From: a virus
IMG/VR virus record: IMGVR_UViG_3300036406_001149
Strand: one strand, 5' to 3'
Length of the DNA: 64,000 nucleotides
Shown here: positions 1 to 5,422 of the stretch, in pieces
Layout of the letters: each line of letters starts with the position of its first letter
Position numbering within the stretch: position 1 is the first letter of the stretch
Translations under genes and position numbers: made by a program
Notes under the pieces: model-generated
Told to the model about the DNA's origin: nothing
Database searches by the model: none
The model's input: only the letters and a program-made list of their open reading frames with translations

Positions 1-113
1 AACGAATCATCAGAATCATTCTCCAGGTCATCATCTCCAGCCCAGTAGTCATTAGTACGATCATCAGCATCGATACCATAAAAATCTTCAAGATCGTCAT
101 ACTCGTAGCTCAT
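1..113 (-). CDS. Very acidic small early protein (runs off the left edge)
   Basis: Manual translation from ATG at 113: MSYEYDDLEDFYGIDADDRTNDYWAGDDDLENDSDDS...; starts 2 nt after the stop of the upstream ORF; not in ORF track. Confidence 0.6.
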   Translation of the reverse strand, partial: MSYEYDDLEDFYGIDADDRTNDYWAGDDDLENDSDDS

Positions 114-115
114 GG

Positions 116-187
116 TCAATCCCTCACGATGGTGGTAATATAAAACAGGCCAACGTATCCGACAACAAACGCAATCGCACTAAGCAT
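116..187 (-). CDS. 23-aa hydrophobic peptide
   Basis: MLSAIAFVVGYVGLFYITTIVRD; tightly coupled to both neighbouring ORFs. Confidence 0.4.
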   Translation of the reverse strand: MLSAIAFVVGYVGLFYITTIVRD

Positions 188-347
188 GATCATACTCCGG
201 GGGAACGAAATCGTCAATATCAATTCCGACTACCTCAGCATAATCGTAAAAATCGGTCTGGATACTAGGATCGTCAATCGGCTCCACGATGTTCAGTTCG
301 GCCATCTCAGCAAGAATCCGATTCACAGCGTCAAAATCGTTCAGCAT
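180..347 (-). CDS. 55-aa acidic early protein
   Basis: MLNDFDAVNRILAEMAELNIVEPIDDPSIQTDFYDYAEVVGIDIDDFVPPEYDHA; downstream of promoter 386-414. Confidence 0.6.
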   Translation of the reverse strand: MLNDFDAVNRILAEMAELNIVEPIDDPSIQTDFYDYAEVVGIDIDDFVPPEYDHA

Positions 348-385
348 GATTCTACTCCGTTTGGGTTTCCGTTCGTGATGCTTTG

Positions 386-414
386 ATTCTACACTTATTA
401 TCGACCCATTGCAA
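386..414 (-). promoter_or_regulatory. sigma70-type early promoter TTGCAA-17-TAGAAT
   Basis: Hexamers at 409-414 and 386-391 read on the minus strand. Confidence 0.6.
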
Positions 415-434
415 GCCCTACCATAAAAGTTTTT

Positions 435-538
435 CCTTGCAATTTCGTAAGGTTGTCGTAAAGTGTTGGAGCATAAGCACTTACGCTTCGCGGGGCGGGC
501 CGGACTCGACGTAAGTCCTTACAGATGAAGGAGATACG
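435..538. repeat. Composite repeat copy 1: 18-bp operator (435-452) + palindrome A (457-485) + palindrome B (510-538)
   Basis: CCTTGC-N6-GTAAGG; CGTAAA-N17-CTTACG; CGTAAG-N17-GATACG; A to B offset 53 bp. Confidence 0.8.
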
Positions 539-707
539 TCATAGCACAGCCGATAACAAAACACACCCCCCACAATATGTAGTCACTCGCTCTCATCATT
601 TTCCTCCATATACATGATATTTGACATACTAGCGTACAGTACAATACCACAAATATAACCGAAAGCGACACTAACGAAATCCAATTGATACATCCTTGCA
701 TCTCCAT
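519..707 (-). CDS. Small two-helix membrane protein
   Basis: ORF track 519..758; ATG at 707 preferred because it follows the upstream stop; two hydrophobic segments. Confidence 0.55.
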   Translation of the reverse strand: MEMQGCINWISLVSLSVIFVVLYCTLVCQISCIWRKMMRASDYILWGVCFVIGCAMTYLLHL

Positions 708-717
708 TGTTATTTGG

Positions 718-906
718 TCAATCTCCGTACCCAACCCAAAAATCATCATCTTCTTCATTCTGCATAAGAGTATATCCCCGACTCCTCATAGCCTCATATT
801 CATTTATCCTTTGCCAAACTTCTCCCACAATAGAGAGAAAATAGACCAAGGCCAGAATAAAAAGCATTACCCCCATCCAGACCCATACCAAAATAAAATC
901 GCTCAT
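718..906 (-). CDS. Small single-pass membrane protein with acidic C-terminus
   Basis: MSDFILVWVWMGVMLFILALVYFLSIV...EEDDDFWVGYGD; ATGA overlap with upstream gene. Confidence 0.65.
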   Translation of the reverse strand: MSDFILVWVWMGVMLFILALVYFLSIVGEVWQRINEYEAMRSRGYTLMQNEEDDDFWVGYGD

Positions 907-1097
907 AAAACCTCTTTCCAAACATGGCCGTAAGCATCGACAGCAGACGTTAATTCATCATCCGAAAAATATGCGTGAAGTCCACTGGTAACTGTCACTT
1001 CCCATACATTACCCTCATCGTATTCATGTCCTACGATTTTACCAACCTTTTTCTCTTTTCCCCACATGAACGATACATAGTCACCAATTTCAAACAT
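903..1097 (-). CDS. Small SH3/KOW-like beta protein
   Basis: MFEIGDYVSFMWGKEKKVGKIVGHEY...; GAGGAAAG ribosome-binding site before ATG 1097. Confidence 0.65.
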   Translation of the reverse strand: MFEIGDYVSFMWGKEKKVGKIVGHEYDEGNVWEVTVTSGLHAYFSDDELTSAVDAYGHVWKEVL

Positions 1098-1110
1098 TTT
1101 TCTTTCCTCT

Positions 1111-1290
1111 TTACTTAGTAGCGAGCAACAGAGATTCTTCACGATACCGACGCAACAATTCTGTTGCAAGATAGGAAATATGCTGTTTCCTCAGTTCGAT
1201 CATTTCGGGATCAGTATCCCTAGCGAGCCGGACTTGCTCTAGCCACAGGTTATCTTGCAAAACTCTAGTAGGAAATTGTTTCATCTTCAT
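1111..1290 (-). CDS. 59-aa hypothetical early protein
   Basis: Manual translation MKMKQFPTRVLQDNLWLEQVRLARDTDPEMIELRKQHISYLATELLRRYREESLLLATK; directly after promoter 1311-1339. Confidence 0.6.
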   Translation of the reverse strand: MKMKQFPTRVLQDNLWLEQVRLARDTDPEMIELRKQHISYLATELLRRYREESLLLATK

Positions 1291-1310
1291 TCTCTCTTTC
1301 TTGTCTTACT

Positions 1311-1339
1311 ATTATACCAAACTTTTCCGTCGCCGCCAA
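1311..1339 (-). promoter_or_regulatory. sigma70-type early promoter TTGGCG-17-TATAAT
   Basis: Hexamers at 1334-1339 and 1311-1316 on the minus strand. Confidence 0.55.
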
Positions 1340-1360
1340 CCCCTCTTATACGGGGGTGGG
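1336..1360. terminator. GC hairpin at gene end, repeated at about 4201-4224
   Basis: CCAACCCCTCTTATACGGGGGTGGG versus TCAACCCCTCTTATCGGGGGAGGG; both overlap a stop codon and the next -35 box. Confidence 0.45.
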
Positions 1361-1564
1361 ATTCGACCGATAATACATTGCCCACAGTTCATCCATCACA
1401 AACTGGACAACACGATCATGTGAACCACGGCAGACGTAGTATCCCATATGGATATCAAACAGAGCAAACGATCCATCTTCTTGAGGATGAAACGTGAACC
1501 CACACTTGTAGGCATAGGCGTTGATTTTACCCTTGACGGTCGAACTTTTTGGAGGCTTTCTCAT
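1346..1564 (-). CDS. 72-aa hypothetical early protein
   Basis: The track start TTG at 1624 is the -35 box of a perfect promoter; true start is likely ATG 1564 (MRKPPKSSTVKG...). Confidence 0.7.
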   Translation of the reverse strand: MRKPPKSSTVKGKINAYAYKCGFTFHPQEDGSFALFDIHMGYYVCRGSHDRVVQFVMDELWAMYYRSNPTPV

Positions 1565-1595
1565 TTTCTTCTTTCCTTTTCTTTCTTGTCCTATC

Positions 1596-1624
1596 ATTAT
1601 ACCATAATTATCGTCCAATGTCAA
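1596..1624 (-). promoter_or_regulatory. Perfect sigma70 promoter TTGACA-17-TATAAT
   Basis: tgtcaa 1619-1624 and attata 1596-1601. Confidence 0.85.
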
Positions 1625-1646
1625 TAGCCTAGACCAGGAAAAATTT

Positions 1647-1793
1647 CCTTACAAAGTCGTAAGGTTTGAGAGAGAGATTTGGCATAGCGTTTGCGACCCG
1701 ATCAGATTAGCTGTAACTCTATAGGCAGAAACCACTTACGTCAAGTTTGGCGAGCCGTCTTTGCTCTAAGTGCTTATGTAGCAACGGGTTACA
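1647..1793. repeat. Composite repeat copy 2: operator 1647-1664, palindrome A 1712-1740, palindrome B 1765-1793
   Basis: CCTTAC-N6-GTAAGG; TGTAAC-N17-CTTACG; TCTAAG-N17-GTTACA; offset 53 bp. Confidence 0.8.
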
Positions 1794-1937
1794 TCAAATC
1801 TTTCGTTTTCTGTATATTCGTTCACCATCCACCCAAACGGGTAGGTATAGCCTAGGGTACAGCTGTACATATCTGCTATTTACCCATCGTTCAGTCTCTA
1901 GTGTAACGTCATATACTAGTGTACAATCGTTCATCAT
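1794..1937 (-). CDS. 47-aa hypothetical protein
   Basis: MMNDCTLVYDVTLETERWVNSRYVQLYPRLYLPVWVDGERIYRKRKI; ATGA coupling; its stop abuts palindrome B. Confidence 0.55.
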   Translation of the reverse strand: MMNDCTLVYDVTLETERWVNSRYVQLYPRLYLPVWVDGERIYRKRKI

Positions 1938-2317
1938 TCATCTTCTCCCTTGAAGCTGAAAGGACTGATTTCTTCTCCATAAGCTGCGATAGCCTCGTAC
2001 TGTGAACGCAGAGCGTCAACACGCTCACGGCTTCCCGGCTTACCAACCGAAATGATCATAGTATCCTCACCACCAACATAGCGAGGATCGGCCTTTTCTT
2101 TACGAATCTTTCCGATATTCTTCAATGAGGTACGATTGAACTTGAGAACCTTTTCGCTCACAACGTAACGCTTCTGGTCGGTCACGCCATAGACGTAATC
2201 GGTATCTTCAGTGATCCGATCATCGGGAATCTCTACTAGCATCGGAATAGCGATACCCTTGAAGATCATACGGGCTTGACGCTTGGCATTTTCGATGATG
2301 GGATACTTGGTTTTCAT
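1934..2317 (-). CDS. 127-aa hypothetical early protein
   Basis: Track ORF 1934..2530 spans a perfect promoter at 2358-2386, so ATG 2317 (MKTKYPIIENAKRQ...) is preferred. Confidence 0.7.
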   Translation of the reverse strand: MKTKYPIIENAKRQARMIFKGIAIPMLVEIPDDRITEDTDYVYGVTDQKRYVVSEKVLKFNRTSLKNIGKIRKEKADPRYVGGEDTMIISVGKPGSRERVDALRSQYEAIAAYGEEISPFSFKGEDE

Positions 2318-2357
2318 TGTCTTTTTCTCTCTTTGTCTATCGTTCTCTTGTGTGTGC

Positions 2358-2404
2358 ATTATACCAAACCTATTTTGTTCTGTCAACCTTACAATGTCGG
2401 AAGG
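2358..2404 (-). promoter_or_regulatory. Perfect sigma70 promoter with adjacent operator (2387-2404)
   Basis: TTGACA-17-TATAAT at 2358-2386; CCTTAC-AATGTC-GGAAGG immediately upstream. Confidence 0.8.
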
Positions 2405-2405
2405 T

Positions 2406-2609
2406 TCAGATTCTCCACTCAACAAACTTGAGAGTGAACACTTGACCAGGATACTTTGCAGAGATATGCTTTTCAGCAGTCTCTTTCTTGTTGTCCGAAG
2501 CACTAACACCTTGAACAATCTTTCCATCAATCATCACACTCCAAATCTTACGCTTACGAATCTTAGGGAGTGAACTGATGAAGCTATTGATGTGAGTAGT
2601 CTTTTCCAT
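2406..2609 (-). CDS. 67-aa early protein, paralog of 4211..4435
   Basis: MEKTTHINSFISSLPKI... aligns end to end with MEKTTNINSFINTLPKI... Confidence 0.75.
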   Translation of the reverse strand: MEKTTHINSFISSLPKIRKRKIWSVMIDGKIVQGVSASDNKKETAEKHISAKYPGQVFTLKFVEWRI

Positions 2610-2642
2610 TTTTTTCTCTTTCTTTCTTTCTTTCTTTTCTCT

Positions 2643-2698
2643 ATTATACAGTATCGGTTATTGTTTGTCAATACCTTGAACCTTGCAATGTCGTAAGG
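2643..2698 (-). promoter_or_regulatory. Perfect sigma70 promoter with operator (2681-2698)
   Basis: TTGACA-17-TATAAT at 2643-2671; CCTTGC-AATGTC-GTAAGG. Confidence 0.85.
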
Positions 2699-2833
2699 TT
2701 AGATCATTCTCTGGAAGTATCGAACCTTGAGAGGATCTTGGGTAATCTTCCCATTCTGGATAAGATAGATAACCTTTCCATTTCTAACCATTGCACTAGT
2801 GTTGTTGGTAATCTGAATCGTTTTCATTTTCAT
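2699..2833 (-). CDS. 44-aa basic hypothetical protein
   Basis: MKMKTIQITNNTSAMVRNGKVIYLIQNGKITQDPLKVRYFQRMI after a purine-rich leader. Confidence 0.55.
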   Translation of the reverse strand: MKMKTIQITNNTSAMVRNGKVIYLIQNGKITQDPLKVRYFQRMI

Positions 2834-2910
2834 TCTCTCTTTCTTATACCTATATAAGATGCAGCTTTCGTGCCAAAGCCAAAAATATTTTTCTTGCGTT
2901 TTTCTCGGGC

Positions 2911-3056
2911 AAAACACTATGCTACTTTCTGTGCCTAGTTTTTAAGCGTAGCATTTTGCAACAGTGATTTGCATTTTGCGTTAGCATTTTTGGCCGAGAT
3001 ATTGATAAGTGTAGCATTTTGCGTTACGCTACATATGGTGTGCCTAGAAAGTAATC
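2911..3056. repeat. Non-coding block of short direct and inverted repeats
   Basis: GCATTTT at 2951, 2971, 2984 and 3014 (GCATTTTGC three times); GTGCCTAG at 2931 and 3040. Confidence 0.6.
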
Positions 3057-3072
3057 AGCACAAGACATTTGT

Positions 3073-3154
3073 CGTAAGTCGTTATTCTATAGGCACTTAC
3101 GTCAAATTTTCGACGCCCCGCTCGTCGTAAGTCGTTACGAGCTAAGGGTTTACG
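3073..3154. repeat. Composite repeat copy 3: palindrome A 3073-3101, palindrome B 3126-3154
   Basis: CGTAAG-N17-CTTACG; CGTAAG-N17-TTTACG; offset 53 bp. Confidence 0.85.
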
Positions 3155-3338
3155 TCGGACTCAGCTCATATAGTGAACAGTTGTATACCTTACCATCCTC
3201 ATCCTGTACAGATGCCCACGCATTTTCTGTACCATACACAGCATCGGCAAGTACGCCCATGAACGAACGTACAGTAACAACCCTAGAGCCGTGCATCACG
3301 GTTTGTCCATATCGTGGAGTATTTTCTGCAGTGAACAT
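3150..3338 (-). CDS. 62-aa hypothetical early protein
   Basis: ORF track; AAGGGAAAC ribosome-binding site before ATG. Confidence 0.6.
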   Translation of the reverse strand: MFTAENTPRYGQTVMHGSRVVTVRSFMGVLADAVYGTENAWASVQDEDGKVYNCSLYELSPT

Positions 3339-3351
3339 TTGTTTCCCTTTT

Positions 3352-3669
3352 TTAGTAGATAAGATTCATATCGGCCACAACCATACCATCTTCATACTCT
3401 AGGCCACTGTCCAGATACCACTGTCCCTTGCGTTGATACACTCGCACGGGTGAATACTGATTGATTCTATCCTTAGTGGTGGCACTATACCATCCACCAG
3501 TATTGAGGGTAGCACTATTGTCAGGATGAATCTTTACCACATAGGTACTATGCAGCATGATCCCTACGCTACCATCAGGAAGAATTTCCGCATAGGTATT
3601 ATTACCTACCTTACGAGTATCCTTATTAGTCTTACCACGAACCATCTTTACTGCTTCATAGTGTGTCAT
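3352..3669 (-). CDS. 105-aa conserved-looking phage early protein (TGGWxxxTTKxRxN motif)
   Basis: ORF track; motif LNTGGWYSATTKDRIN resembles a phage family of unknown function I recall. Confidence 0.65.
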   Translation of the reverse strand: MTHYEAVKMVRGKTNKDTRKVGNNTYAEILPDGSVGIMLHSTYVVKIHPDNSATLNTGGWYSATTKDRINQYSPVRVYQRKGQWYLDSGLEYEDGMVVADMNLIY

Positions 3670-3670
3670 A

Positions 3671-3823
3671 CTACATTATCCAAACATATAGAGGAAGAAA
3701 AACAAACAGGAAAGCCCAACTACCAAACAGCAAAGCCAAGATACCCAATCCAGAAACTATTCCAAAAGTATCTATAGTCTCTGGATTCTCTCCCAACACA
3801 TTATAACAAATCCACTTTTTCAT
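3671..3823 (-). CDS. 50-aa membrane protein
   Basis: MKKWICYNVLGENPETIDTFGIVSGLGILALLFGSWAFLFVFLPLYVWIM; TAATG coupling. Confidence 0.55.
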   Translation of the reverse strand: MKKWICYNVLGENPETIDTFGIVSGLGILALLFGSWAFLFVFLPLYVWIM

Positions 3824-3942
3824 TAGTCGTTCTCATGCAGGATGGATTGAACAGCGTTACCCACTTCGTGAACAGTATACGAAATGAAACCGGCAAAAGC
3901 AATCAAGGCAAACAGCTGAAAATATTCGATAGCTGTAATCAT
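3823..3942 (-). CDS. 39-aa membrane peptide
   Basis: MITAIEYFQLFALIAFAGFISYTVHEVGNAVQSILHEND. Confidence 0.5.
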   Translation of the reverse strand: MITAIEYFQLFALIAFAGFISYTVHEVGNAVQSILHEND

Positions 3943-3952
3943 TAGAATTCTT

Positions 3953-4150
3953 TCAATACTTGATAAGATTATTGGCGACATTGAACCGAATCAATCCAGA
4001 GACACTACGATTAGCCAAAAGGCTATCGGTAACATTCTTTCCATCACGCAGGATGGTTTGAATCACAAAGGAACCACTAGGATAAACCTTGAAGGTTGCA
4101 GTGGTATTGCCAAACTTCATCGTATGCCAAGTTTCGTATCCAAAATTCAT
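3953..4150 (-). CDS. 65-aa hypothetical early protein
   Basis: ATG 4150 after a purine leader and promoter 4177-4204. Confidence 0.6.
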   Translation of the reverse strand: MNFGYETWHTMKFGNTTATFKVYPSGSFVIQTILRDGKNVTDSLLANRSVSGLIRFNVANNLIKY

Positions 4151-4176
4151 TTTCTTTCTCTCTTTCTCTTTCCAGA

Positions 4177-4204
4177 ATTCTATCAAACTTTGTCGCCCCG
4201 TCAA
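4177..4204 (-). promoter_or_regulatory. sigma70-type promoter TTGACG-16-TAGAAT
   Basis: Hexamers at 4199-4204 and 4177-4182. Confidence 0.55.
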
Positions 4205-4210
4205 CCCCTC

Positions 4211-4435
4211 TTATCGGGGGAGGGTCATCAATCCTTTGAAGTGCGAAAACGTCAGGGTAAGCTTTTGACCAACATACTTTTGGTCAATGTACGCTTGTGC
4301 AGAACTTTTCCGATTATCGGTAGCACCAACATACTGAACAACCGTACCATCTTGGTCGGTTACTTTCCAAACCTTCTTCTGAACAATCTTGGGAAGGGTG
4401 TTGATGAAACTGTTGATGTTAGTGGTTTTTTCCAT
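4211..4435 (-). CDS. 74-aa early protein, paralog of 2406..2609
   Basis: ORF track; clear sequence similarity. Confidence 0.75.
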   Translation of the reverse strand: MEKTTNINSFINTLPKIVQKKVWKVTDQDGTVVQYVGATDNRKSSAQAYIDQKYVGQKLTLTFSHFKGLMTLPR

Positions 4436-4481
4436 TTTTCTTTTTCTCTTTCTTTCTTTTTCTCTTACTTCTTATATCGAC

Positions 4482-4510
4482 ATTATACCATGAGAATCTT
4501 TAGATGTCAA
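4482..4510 (-). promoter_or_regulatory. Perfect sigma70 promoter TTGACA-17-TATAAT
   Basis: tgtcaa 4505-4510, attata 4482-4487. Confidence 0.85.
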
Positions 4511-4521
4511 TGAAAAACTTT

Positions 4522-4625
4522 CCTTGCAATTTCGTAAGGTTTCTCTAAGTCTATACAGGGTAAGTAGTTATGTCGAATTTGGGAGGCCGACGTTGTCGTA
4601 AGTGCTTATCTACCAACAGCTTACG
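4522..4625. repeat. Composite repeat copy 4: operator 4522-4539, palindrome A 4544-4572, palindrome B 4597-4625
   Basis: CCTTGC-N6-GTAAGG; TCTAAG-N17-GTTATG; CGTAAG-N17-CTTACG; same 4-bp and 53-bp spacings as copy 1. Confidence 0.85.
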
Positions 4626-4645
4626 TTCAGCCTATACAAATGTTC

Positions 4646-4795
4646 TTAGAGAATCGTTCCGTCACCACGAATACGATACATGATCCCTCCAATACTGTAC
4701 AAACAAATACCTTCGCCCATATTCTGAACAAACGTGGCCGAATATCCATGGCGAGCAACTAGGCGACGAATCGTGTTTTGTACTTGAATGGTCAT
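4646..4795 (-). CDS. 49-aa hypothetical early protein
   Basis: MTIQVQNTIRRLVARHGYSATFVQNMGEGICLYSIGGIMYRIRGDGTIL; GAGGG ribosome-binding site; follows promoter 4822-4851. Confidence 0.6.
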   Translation of the reverse strand: MTIQVQNTIRRLVARHGYSATFVQNMGEGICLYSIGGIMYRIRGDGTIL

Positions 4796-4821
4796 TGTTC
4801 TTTCCCTCTTGTGTTGGTTCT

Positions 4822-4851
4822 ATTATACAGTATCGGCTATTCCGTTGTCAA
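4822..4851 (-). promoter_or_regulatory. sigma70 promoter TTGACA-18-TATAAT
   Basis: tgtcaa 4846-4851, attata 4822-4827; flanks closely resemble the promoter at 2643-2671. Confidence 0.8.
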
Positions 4852-4855
4852 TACC

Positions 4856-5086
4856 TTAGCAGATTGCAAAATCTTTCACAACATAACCCATTTCGTCAAT
4901 CTCAATCCAACCACCATCATCCATGAATCCCAATTCTTCATCAATTGAGATCACATTATCATTTTCACGAACCTTTTCCAGAAGATCACTAGCAAATGCT
5001 ACCCTATTCACAAAGGTATCCATTCCAGTGTTATTGATCAGGTCGTGCAACTCAGCCACAGTGTTCAGAACAATCATGTTTTCCAT
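4856..5086 (-). CDS. 76-aa acidic early protein
   Basis: MENMIVLNTVAELHDL...IDEELGFMDDGGWIEIDEMG; ATG 5086 after a purine leader. Confidence 0.65.
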   Translation of the reverse strand: MENMIVLNTVAELHDLINNTGMDTFVNRVAFASDLLEKVRENDNVISIDEELGFMDDGGWIEIDEMGYVVKDFAIC

Positions 5087-5126
5087 TTTCTTTTCCTTTT
5101 CTTCTTTCTTTTTCTCTTGTGCTTTC

Positions 5127-5154
5127 ATTATACAGTATTTATCGACGCTTTCAA
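5127..5154 (-). promoter_or_regulatory. sigma70-type promoter TTGAAA-16-TATAAT
   Basis: Hexamers at 5149-5154 and 5127-5132. Confidence 0.55.
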
Positions 5155-5228
5155 GAGAAATCTTTGGATTTTTTCAAATATAATTTCATGCCAAACACAA
5201 AATTTTCTGATTTTTTCTAAATCATTGA

Positions 5229-5310
5229 CATAACTCTATATCCCATAAGTACTTACGTCAAATTTTGGAGAGAGAATAGTACCTAAGTGTTTATGTATCA
5301 ACAACTTAGG
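5229..5310. repeat. Composite repeat copy 5: palindrome A 5229-5257, palindrome B 5282-5310
   Basis: CATAAC-N17-CTTACG; CCTAAG-N17-CTTAGG; offset 53 bp. Confidence 0.85.
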
Positions 5311-5422
5311 GGGTTTTTTCGTTTTTGCTGCCCATTTCGGAATTTCCCCAAAAACCCTCGGGTGGTGCAAACATAGTAGGCGGGTCTATAAGATATTGGC
5401 CAGTTTAATAGCCAGTTTCCCC

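Follow-up and report, generated by a model that had tools for sequence, protein, structure and literature searches.

The 64,000-nucleotide (nt) stretch of viral DNA recorded in IMG/VR as IMGVR_UViG_3300036406_001149, referred to here at its full length as the window, derives from an uncultured tailed phage and carries five copies of a 98-base-pair (bp) element in which two 29-bp palindromes are set at a constant distance from each other. By sequence comparison, this element is conserved across a family of uncultured ~225-kilobase (kb) phages. We propose, with about an even chance of being right, that it is a DNA-level control module, that is, a pair of operators for a dimeric protein positioned at the borders of early gene cassettes. 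A dimer bound to DNA is favored because the palindrome arms are conserved as sequence, the geometry is invariant, and the arms do not covary.

A two-palindrome element of invariant geometry

An earlier note on this DNA had reported paired sites at 457/510, 1712/1765, 3073/3126, 4544/4597, and 5229/5282, separated by fixed distances of 17 and 53 bp. All ten sites are present at those coordinates; each conforms to nnTAAn-N17-nTTAnn, and the two members of every pair are offset by exactly 53 bp. A repeat search of the window independently recovered the element as families of 53-bp-spaced repeats, and the five copies can be aligned over ~95 nt with MAFFT. A loose regular expression for the two-unit layout matched four of the five copies, compared with a mean of 0.5 matches in shuffled windows (both strands); the copy that it missed, e1, reads ATA instead of TTA in one of its arms. 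The covariance model R1, for which 74 copies were used, 69 of them from other contigs, finds exactly five places in the window, with scores of 58-85 bits and E-values of 6e-9 to 4e-14, and has no match in the remaining 58 kb, which hold structural genes. The canonical, higher-scoring strand of the element is the + strand of the window, antisense to the genes. The five copies are as follows.

449..546, + strand: element e1, palindromes 457-485 and 510-538; R1 58.4 bits, E 6e-9
1704..1801, + strand: element e2, palindromes 1712-1740 and 1765-1793; R1 72.4 bits, E 1e-11
3065..3162, + strand: element e3, palindromes 3073-3101 and 3126-3154; R1 84.9 bits, E 4e-14
4536..4633, + strand: element e4, palindromes 4544-4572 and 4597-4625; R1 68.0 bits, E 8e-11
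5221..5318, + strand: element e5, palindromes 5229-5257 and 5282-5310; R1 72.0 bits, E 1.4e-11

The length of the element is almost invariant. Nearly all R1 matches span 98 nt exactly, with a few at 97 or 99, and the 74-copy alignment contains no gaps even though its mean column identity is only 68%. The operator consensus, to which e3 is the nearest of the window copies, reads CGTAAGTnnTT-N7-AAnnACTTACG; it is 29 bp long and occurs twice per 98-bp element, 53 bp from center to center. Its arm bases are nearly invariant, and the 7-bp centers and much of the spacer are variable. The spacers do not vary freely, as had been supposed: the inner TT/AA at unit positions 10-11 and 19-20 is more than 90% conserved, and the region between the two units follows a pattern of T-tract, GC-rich core, and A-tract. 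Because the two units differ from each other in a consistent manner (TCGTT...AAGCA in unit 1, TCCTT...AAGGG in unit 2), the element has a polarity.

Distribution across a phage family

When IMG/VR was scanned for the exact pattern, 116 loci matched, the majority by chance, and ~22 contigs stood out as having several two-palindrome copies; with the covariance model, ~140 distinct copies were collected from some 22 viral contigs. Five complete related genomes (G001-G005, 186-231 kb) contain 15-25 copies each, all of them inside one early stretch of 18-22 kb, at about one copy per kb. There, 91 of 94 copies share the same orientation, and the element is antisense to the neighboring genes at every locus. 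Strict single palindromes are nearly confined to elements as well, with 54 matches in the five genomes against 2 in the reversed control, and a search elsewhere in the genomes for lone palindromes that might serve as autoregulatory sites yielded none that was convincing. Since the half-sites stay constant while the loops and the spacer vary, this conservation reflects selection rather than recent duplication.

The window comprises only the first 5.4 kb of the element-bearing early region, which presumably continues past its left edge. Positions 1-5400 form an early-type region on the - strand, in which small open reading frames (ORFs) are grouped into short operons, each with a near-consensus TTGACA-N17-TATAAT promoter and a purine-rich leader (AAAGAAAG...) whose Shine-Dalgarno sequence is weak at most. 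From ~6.8 kb onward, the + strand encodes the large terminase, the portal, tail fibers, and, in the structural region, a tape measure protein of 5,797 amino acids. A nucleotide comparison with 50,697 deposited phage records found no match to the window, and its terminase is ~25% identical to the best matches, from Bacillus and Microcystis siphophages.

Placement between stop codons and promoters

Read in the sense of the genes, the last stop codon is followed by the element, a gap of 4-120 bp, a sigma70-type promoter, a leader, and the next gene, just as the element had originally been placed, between the last stop of one unit and the promoter of the next. In roughly half of the 94 copies, the stop codon directly adjoins or extends into the element. 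In the window, the stop of ORF 519..758 falls within e1, ORF 1794..1937 ends at the edge of e2, and the stop codon of ORF 3150..3338 is the invariant palindrome-arm TAA of e3 itself (3150-3152). On the promoter side, a consensus scan locates TTGACA-N16-18-TA(T/G)AAT 4-120 nt past most copies. In the distal half of the early region, where gene order is conserved, the -35 box usually begins 10, 20, or 30 bp past the element; distances from the center of the proximal palindrome to the -10 box cluster at ~55, 65, and 75 bp. The proximal half, which includes the window, has extra signals between element and promoter, namely a short palindrome termed H3 and sigma54-type motifs. The sigma70-type promoters assigned to window copies by the consensus scan are the following.

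4482..4510, - strand: sigma70-type promoter of e4 and its H3, TTGACA-17-TATAAT
386-414: equivalent sigma70-type promoter of e1
1596-1624: equivalent sigma70-type promoter of e2
5127-5154: equivalent sigma70-type promoter of e5

Many early promoters, including these last three and others in relatives, have (G/T)CGATAA in their spacer, ~8 nt before the -10 box. A candidate internal sense promoter in unit 1, TTGACG-17-TAGAGT, is present in four of the five window copies and was rejected as a general feature, most family copies having ACGACT instead. A second type of hairpin, CCCnCCCCCGnATAAGAGGGG, found at 1338-1360 and 4203-4225, overlaps a stop and abuts the -35 box (TTGGCG or TTGACG) of two internal promoters. 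Motifs of the form TGTACA-N4-TGTACA (GTA-N8-TAC, e.g., TGTACAGTAGTGTACA) adjoin several elements where the upstream gene ends, on the canonical-strand 3′ flank (L055, L041, L069, and L029). Separately, resemblances to a MotA box and an NtcA box are impressions by eye only. In two relatives the element abuts a tRNA-like gene with a GGTTCGAATCC T-loop (L009:9180-9230 and L019:7980-8030), which suggests that putative tRNA genes are among the element-bounded cassettes.

Probably a DNA site rather than an RNA structure

The position of the element, always past the last stop codon and often overlapping it, its single orientation relative to transcription, and the A/T tracts that border each palindrome are all features that speak for a function at the RNA level. 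Tandem hairpins at the 3′ ends of early operons could then act as terminator, attenuator, or stabilizer, constituting the stem-loop half of a cassette of the promoter-early stem-loop (PeSL) type; indeed, the PeSLs of T4-like phages share this layout, and their stem-loops terminate transcription (PMC2839356). We consider this explanation unlikely in view of the pairing pattern. The arms can pair in 78.1% of cells, compared with 77.5% when partners are shuffled, and 48 of 500 shuffles reach the observed value, leaving no covariation beyond column composition. True mismatches occupy ~20% of arm cells; positions 8/9 of unit 1 present conserved C·C and G·G oppositions, the sense strand of unit 2 retains conserved A·C/C·A mismatches, and alternation between C-G and G-C occurs in one pair only (columns 63/89 of alignment A2). 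The hairpins are weak, with means of -6 to -8.6 kcal/mol, and one followed by a U-tract on the sense strand is found in only 4-5 of 91 copies. Invariant loop and spacer lengths, moreover, are not something that RNA hairpins need.

A conserved RNA structure was accordingly rejected: single-sequence folds of the five window copies on both strands are mutually inconsistent, with z-scores mostly above -2, pair counts equal those of shuffled controls, and an Rfam search of the element returned nothing at E<=1. An intrinsic terminator consists of a stable GC-rich hairpin followed directly by a U-tract. As the conserved function of the element it was likewise rejected, given the weak hairpins, the few U-tracts, and a consensus scan that found no terminator at the palindromes, with the exception of unit 2 of e5 on the + strand. 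Dyad-symmetric sequence at fixed spacing, free of a pairing constraint, fits a site for a dimeric DNA-binding protein better than it fits an RNA hairpin or terminator.

The exception, e5, is the first element of the early region, and its second palindrome runs into GGGGGTTTTTTCGTTTTT on the + strand. Together the two (5282-5328, +) make a good predicted intrinsic terminator for rightward transcripts, which would keep antisense transcripts that exit the early region from entering the late operon. The same G-run/T-run tail follows the first element at three other loci (L094, L029, and L041).

A predicted pair of operators

Phased sites for a regulator were among the roles first suggested for the element. 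This suggestion is favored by conservation without covariation, invariant geometry, and fixed placement relative to promoters, and it is still unproven. In the model proposed here, a sequence-specific dimer, encoded by the phage or by its host, is predicted to occupy both operators cooperatively; about five helical turns apart, the two would lie on one face of the helix. The complex would sit at the border of two early units, after the upstream stop and typically 10-30 bp before the next host-type -35 box. Once bound, it would control or insulate early transcription, for which three modes can be envisaged: activation from upstream, a timed shut-off, or a roadblock that stops read-through and antisense transcripts. 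Secondarily, the module, usually together with its promoter and recurring about once per kb, may provide a portable joint for the exchange, insertion, and reordering of cassettes.

Several observations weigh against the operator model. A Pfam search of ten conserved early proteins detected only Kyano_Gp96, DUF932, and DUF7227/GP88 and no DNA-binding domain, and neither HTH_3 nor RHH_1 has a match in the five complete genomes; the binder may come from the host, or it may be a phage protein whose fold is not recognized. Unit 2 pairs better on its antisense strand, at 81.8% versus 71.9%, by virtue of G·U at two positions, a hint that this strand is under some constraint at the RNA level. Co-orientation and position after stop codons would equally suit an RNA 3′-end element. 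The 10-bp phasing of the promoters could have been inherited with duplicated cassettes, since the junction classes are not independent. Finally, the evidence is comparative throughout, and binding by a protein and its effect on transcription are predictions from it.

Conceivably, the element belongs to a boundary system of jumbo phages, an extension of the operator model that we put forward tentatively and regard as somewhat doubtful. One predicted protein of unrecognized fold, whether early, virion-delivered, or host-encoded, would bind ~20 double palindromes and thereby insulate and time every early unit; some copies might also block sigma54-driven antisense transcription, and the same module would be the joint for exchange of host-takeover and anti-defense cassettes.

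A probable joint between early cassettes

The earlier note held that a lack of rearrangement at the elements would speak against recombination. Breakpoints in gene content and gene order do adjoin elements in relatives. Early gene families are differently ordered among these phages, with elements at the module borders, and neighboring genes stay neighbors in 43% of pairs when an element separates them and in 59% of pairs when none does. In G001 only, a ~155-bp block of element, promoter, and leader is inserted between gene families 13 and 14 (L118:9500-9690); the two families lie 9-11 bp apart in G002-G004, and an extra small ORF stands between them in G005. Between the window and G002, a cassette of families 1 and 53 differs in position together with its element, and homology ends beside elements. 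Homology blocks end ~2.7 times as often as expected in that half of the element which faces the stop codon, and a modest enrichment extends to the promoter and leader, although both statistics, on adjacency and on end points, are modest and draw on cases that are not independent in phylogeny. Because the mosaic junctions are scattered around the element and the promoter, they fit homologous or illegitimate exchange between repeated cassettes, in the manner of PeSLs, rather than a precise crossover. A PeSL-like role as a cassette joint is thus supported, by genome comparison, as an evolutionary consequence of the element.

One might go further and make the joint the main role, with the homology of element plus promoter used by general phage recombination in the absence of a dedicated recombinase. 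The rearrangements just described speak for it. We find this improbable as the primary function, however: at ~68% identity over 98 bp, the element is a poor substrate for homologous recombination, and mere homology leaves both the position-specific selection and the exact spacing unexplained. The gene order of the early region is plastic in its proximal half, yet it is kept in the distal half, which is also full of elements.

H3 and sigma54-type motifs

H3 had been described as a third, short site 4 bp from copies 1 and 4 of the element. It is indeed present there, but it is not limited to those copies: it recurs 48 bp from copy 2, and there are two solitary occurrences, at 2387 and 2681. The 18-bp palindrome reads CCTTRCAAnnTCGKAAGG, within a wider form AACCTTACGAnATTGyAAGGAAA. 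Every H3 is found 9-25 nt ahead of a -35 box on the - strand, and relatives have H3 in the proximal early region only. AAAGTTTTT frequently comes next on the gene strand, and CTTACG/CAAGG is common to H3 and the inner part of unit 2. These signals, the H3 copies having come from the repeat search, are located as follows.

435..452: H3 short palindrome CCTTGCAATTTCGTAAGG, 4 bp from e1
4522..4539: H3, 4 bp from e4
1647-1664, 2387-2404, and 2681-2698: other copies of H3
1680..1694, + strand: sigma54-type motif TGGCATAGCGTTTGC, directed into e2 and opposite in sense to the genes

Sigma54-type motifs beside the elements of the proximal half occur in both orientations. The exact form TGGCAY-N5-TTGC is found 23 times in the five genomes and not once in the reversed control, and 21 of the 23 occurrences are in the proximal early region. 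Away from the elements, a sigma54-type promoter, TGGCACGAAAGCTGC, lies at 2861-2875 (-), ~25 nt ahead of ORF 2699..2836, with GCAAAATGC(TA) repeats in both orientations 60-170 bp upstream of it (2920-3030) that resemble enhancer sites. A literature search found no description of phage use of sigma54-type promoters, which appears to be rare.

About 20 of the 94 copies, e2 among them, have TGGCAY-N5-TTGC 0-46 nt from the edge of unit 1, directed into the element. Such motifs, and their enrichment in the proximal half, raise the question of whether the palindromes are sites for a host enhancer-binding protein, or whether a sigma54-type promoter drives transcription of the element as an antisense RNA of ~95 nt. 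The latter would accord with the hairpin plus T-run that unit 2 displays on the antisense strand in 17 of 91 copies, terminator-like in appearance, and with the G·U pairs of unit 2 that favor the same strand. A sigma54-linked module of either kind seems quite unlikely, however. Roughly three quarters of the copies, including all distal ones, have no motif within 70 nt on either side; a search of the proteins of the five complete phage genomes found no enhancer-binding protein (PF00158); and an antisense RNA is at odds with the lack of covariation, the lack of an Rfam family, and the absence of a terminator on either strand from most copies.

Evidence against dedicated recombination sites

The earlier note also compared the element to the res sites of a dedicated recombination system and named the search for a recombinase as a check. 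Searches for Resolvase (PF00239, serine), Phage_integrase (PF00589, tyrosine), and Y1_Tnp (PF01797) domains found none in the five complete relatives, with control genomes positive. Conservative recombinases require matching core sequences, and the central 7-mers are identical in none of 45 pairs within the window and in 19 of 3213 pairs of the five genomes. A res- or att-like system is unsupported because there is no recombinase and the central 7 bp differ in nearly all copies. Although 11-bp arms around a 7-bp center resemble the core sites of tyrosine recombinases, and one co-oriented element per cassette border recalls attC arrays, a res-, attC-, or dif-like site for excision and insertion of cassettes by a dedicated or host recombinase is highly improbable, given also the 29-bp length that places the dyad on a base pair, the two equal sites in 15-25 copies where res has sites I-III, the conservation of sequence rather than structure, which is the opposite of attC, and junctions with no fixed crossover point.

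Significance

As a high-information motif, the element marks the early, host-takeover region of an uncultured ~225-kb phage family, and it offers a bait for the predicted binder. If a protein does bind, the insulation and timing of transcription units would be unusually regular in a phage that uses host sigma70-type and apparently also sigma54-type promoters. Should the module turn out to insulate, it might also find use as a component of synthetic circuits. The cassettes between elements encode dozens of small proteins without assigned function, reshuffled among relatives, and the joints would show how such accessory sets are assembled.

Comparison with known systems

REP/BIME or REPIN elements are associated with a RAYT (Y1 transposase) and are dispersed through extragenic space; here, that domain is absent, and the copies are confined to one 20-kb region. 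The attC site of integrons conserves a folded single-strand structure while its sequence and length vary, and it needs IntI. It resembles the element in that one imperfect palindrome directly follows the last stop of each cassette, in one orientation. In contrast to attC, the element conserves sequence and length rather than structure, no integrase accompanies it, and its cassettes have promoters of their own. Tyrosine-recombinase core sites (dif/pdif, lox, and att core) require an identical central overlap, which the centers of the element do not share.

With res the element has in common several dyad-symmetric sites at fixed helical phasing, and 53 bp is, according to the earlier note, also the spacing between sites I and II of Tn3 res. 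Tn3/gamma-delta res contains three dimer sites for resolvase, according to Grindley et al. (1982) as cited in PMC9943657. A short third site, H3, stands beside some copies of the element only, so that three sub-sites are not its rule. Other differences from res are the lack of a resolvase, the two equal sites, the 15-25 copies per genome, the odd length of the site, and the setting in the early region of a lytic phage.

A parallel in layout is provided by protein p4 of phage phi29, an elongated dimer of novel fold that binds long-spaced inverted repeats and switches early transcription; its sites, CTTTTT-15 bp-AAAATG, come two per region (PMC3100819; PMC1904284). Both systems have blocks 15 bp apart, 6-15-6 in phi29 and 7-15-7 here, paired, with A/T tracts, and next to early promoters. 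The likeness is one of DNA layout alone, with binding to the element predicted rather than observed; the sequences are unrelated, and phi29 has four sites in one control region compared with 30-50 palindromes over 20 kb.

The element also resembles the PeSL cassettes of T4-like phages (Arbiol et al., 2010, PMC2839356; Comeau et al., 2014, PMC4122927). As in those phages, a repeated intergenic cassette populates a plastic early region of small, non-essential genes; a palindromic part past the upstream stop is followed by an AT-rich stretch and a strong sigma70-type promoter; and copies of the cassette delimit what has been inserted, deleted, or reordered between relatives. The stem-loop of a PeSL is a functional terminator, in many cases polyG/polyC, for which neither a fixed sequence nor a fixed geometry has been reported. 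The present element, unlike a PeSL, has two 29-bp palindromes with conserved arms and mismatches at an invariant 53-bp offset and shows few terminator features, and its phages are siphovirus-like, with a tape measure protein, rather than T4-like. We class it as a repeated regulatory cassette of the phage early region that differs from others in the strictness of its two-palindrome geometry and in how often sigma54-type promoters accompany it, and it extends the PeSL idea beyond T4-like phages to another element architecture.

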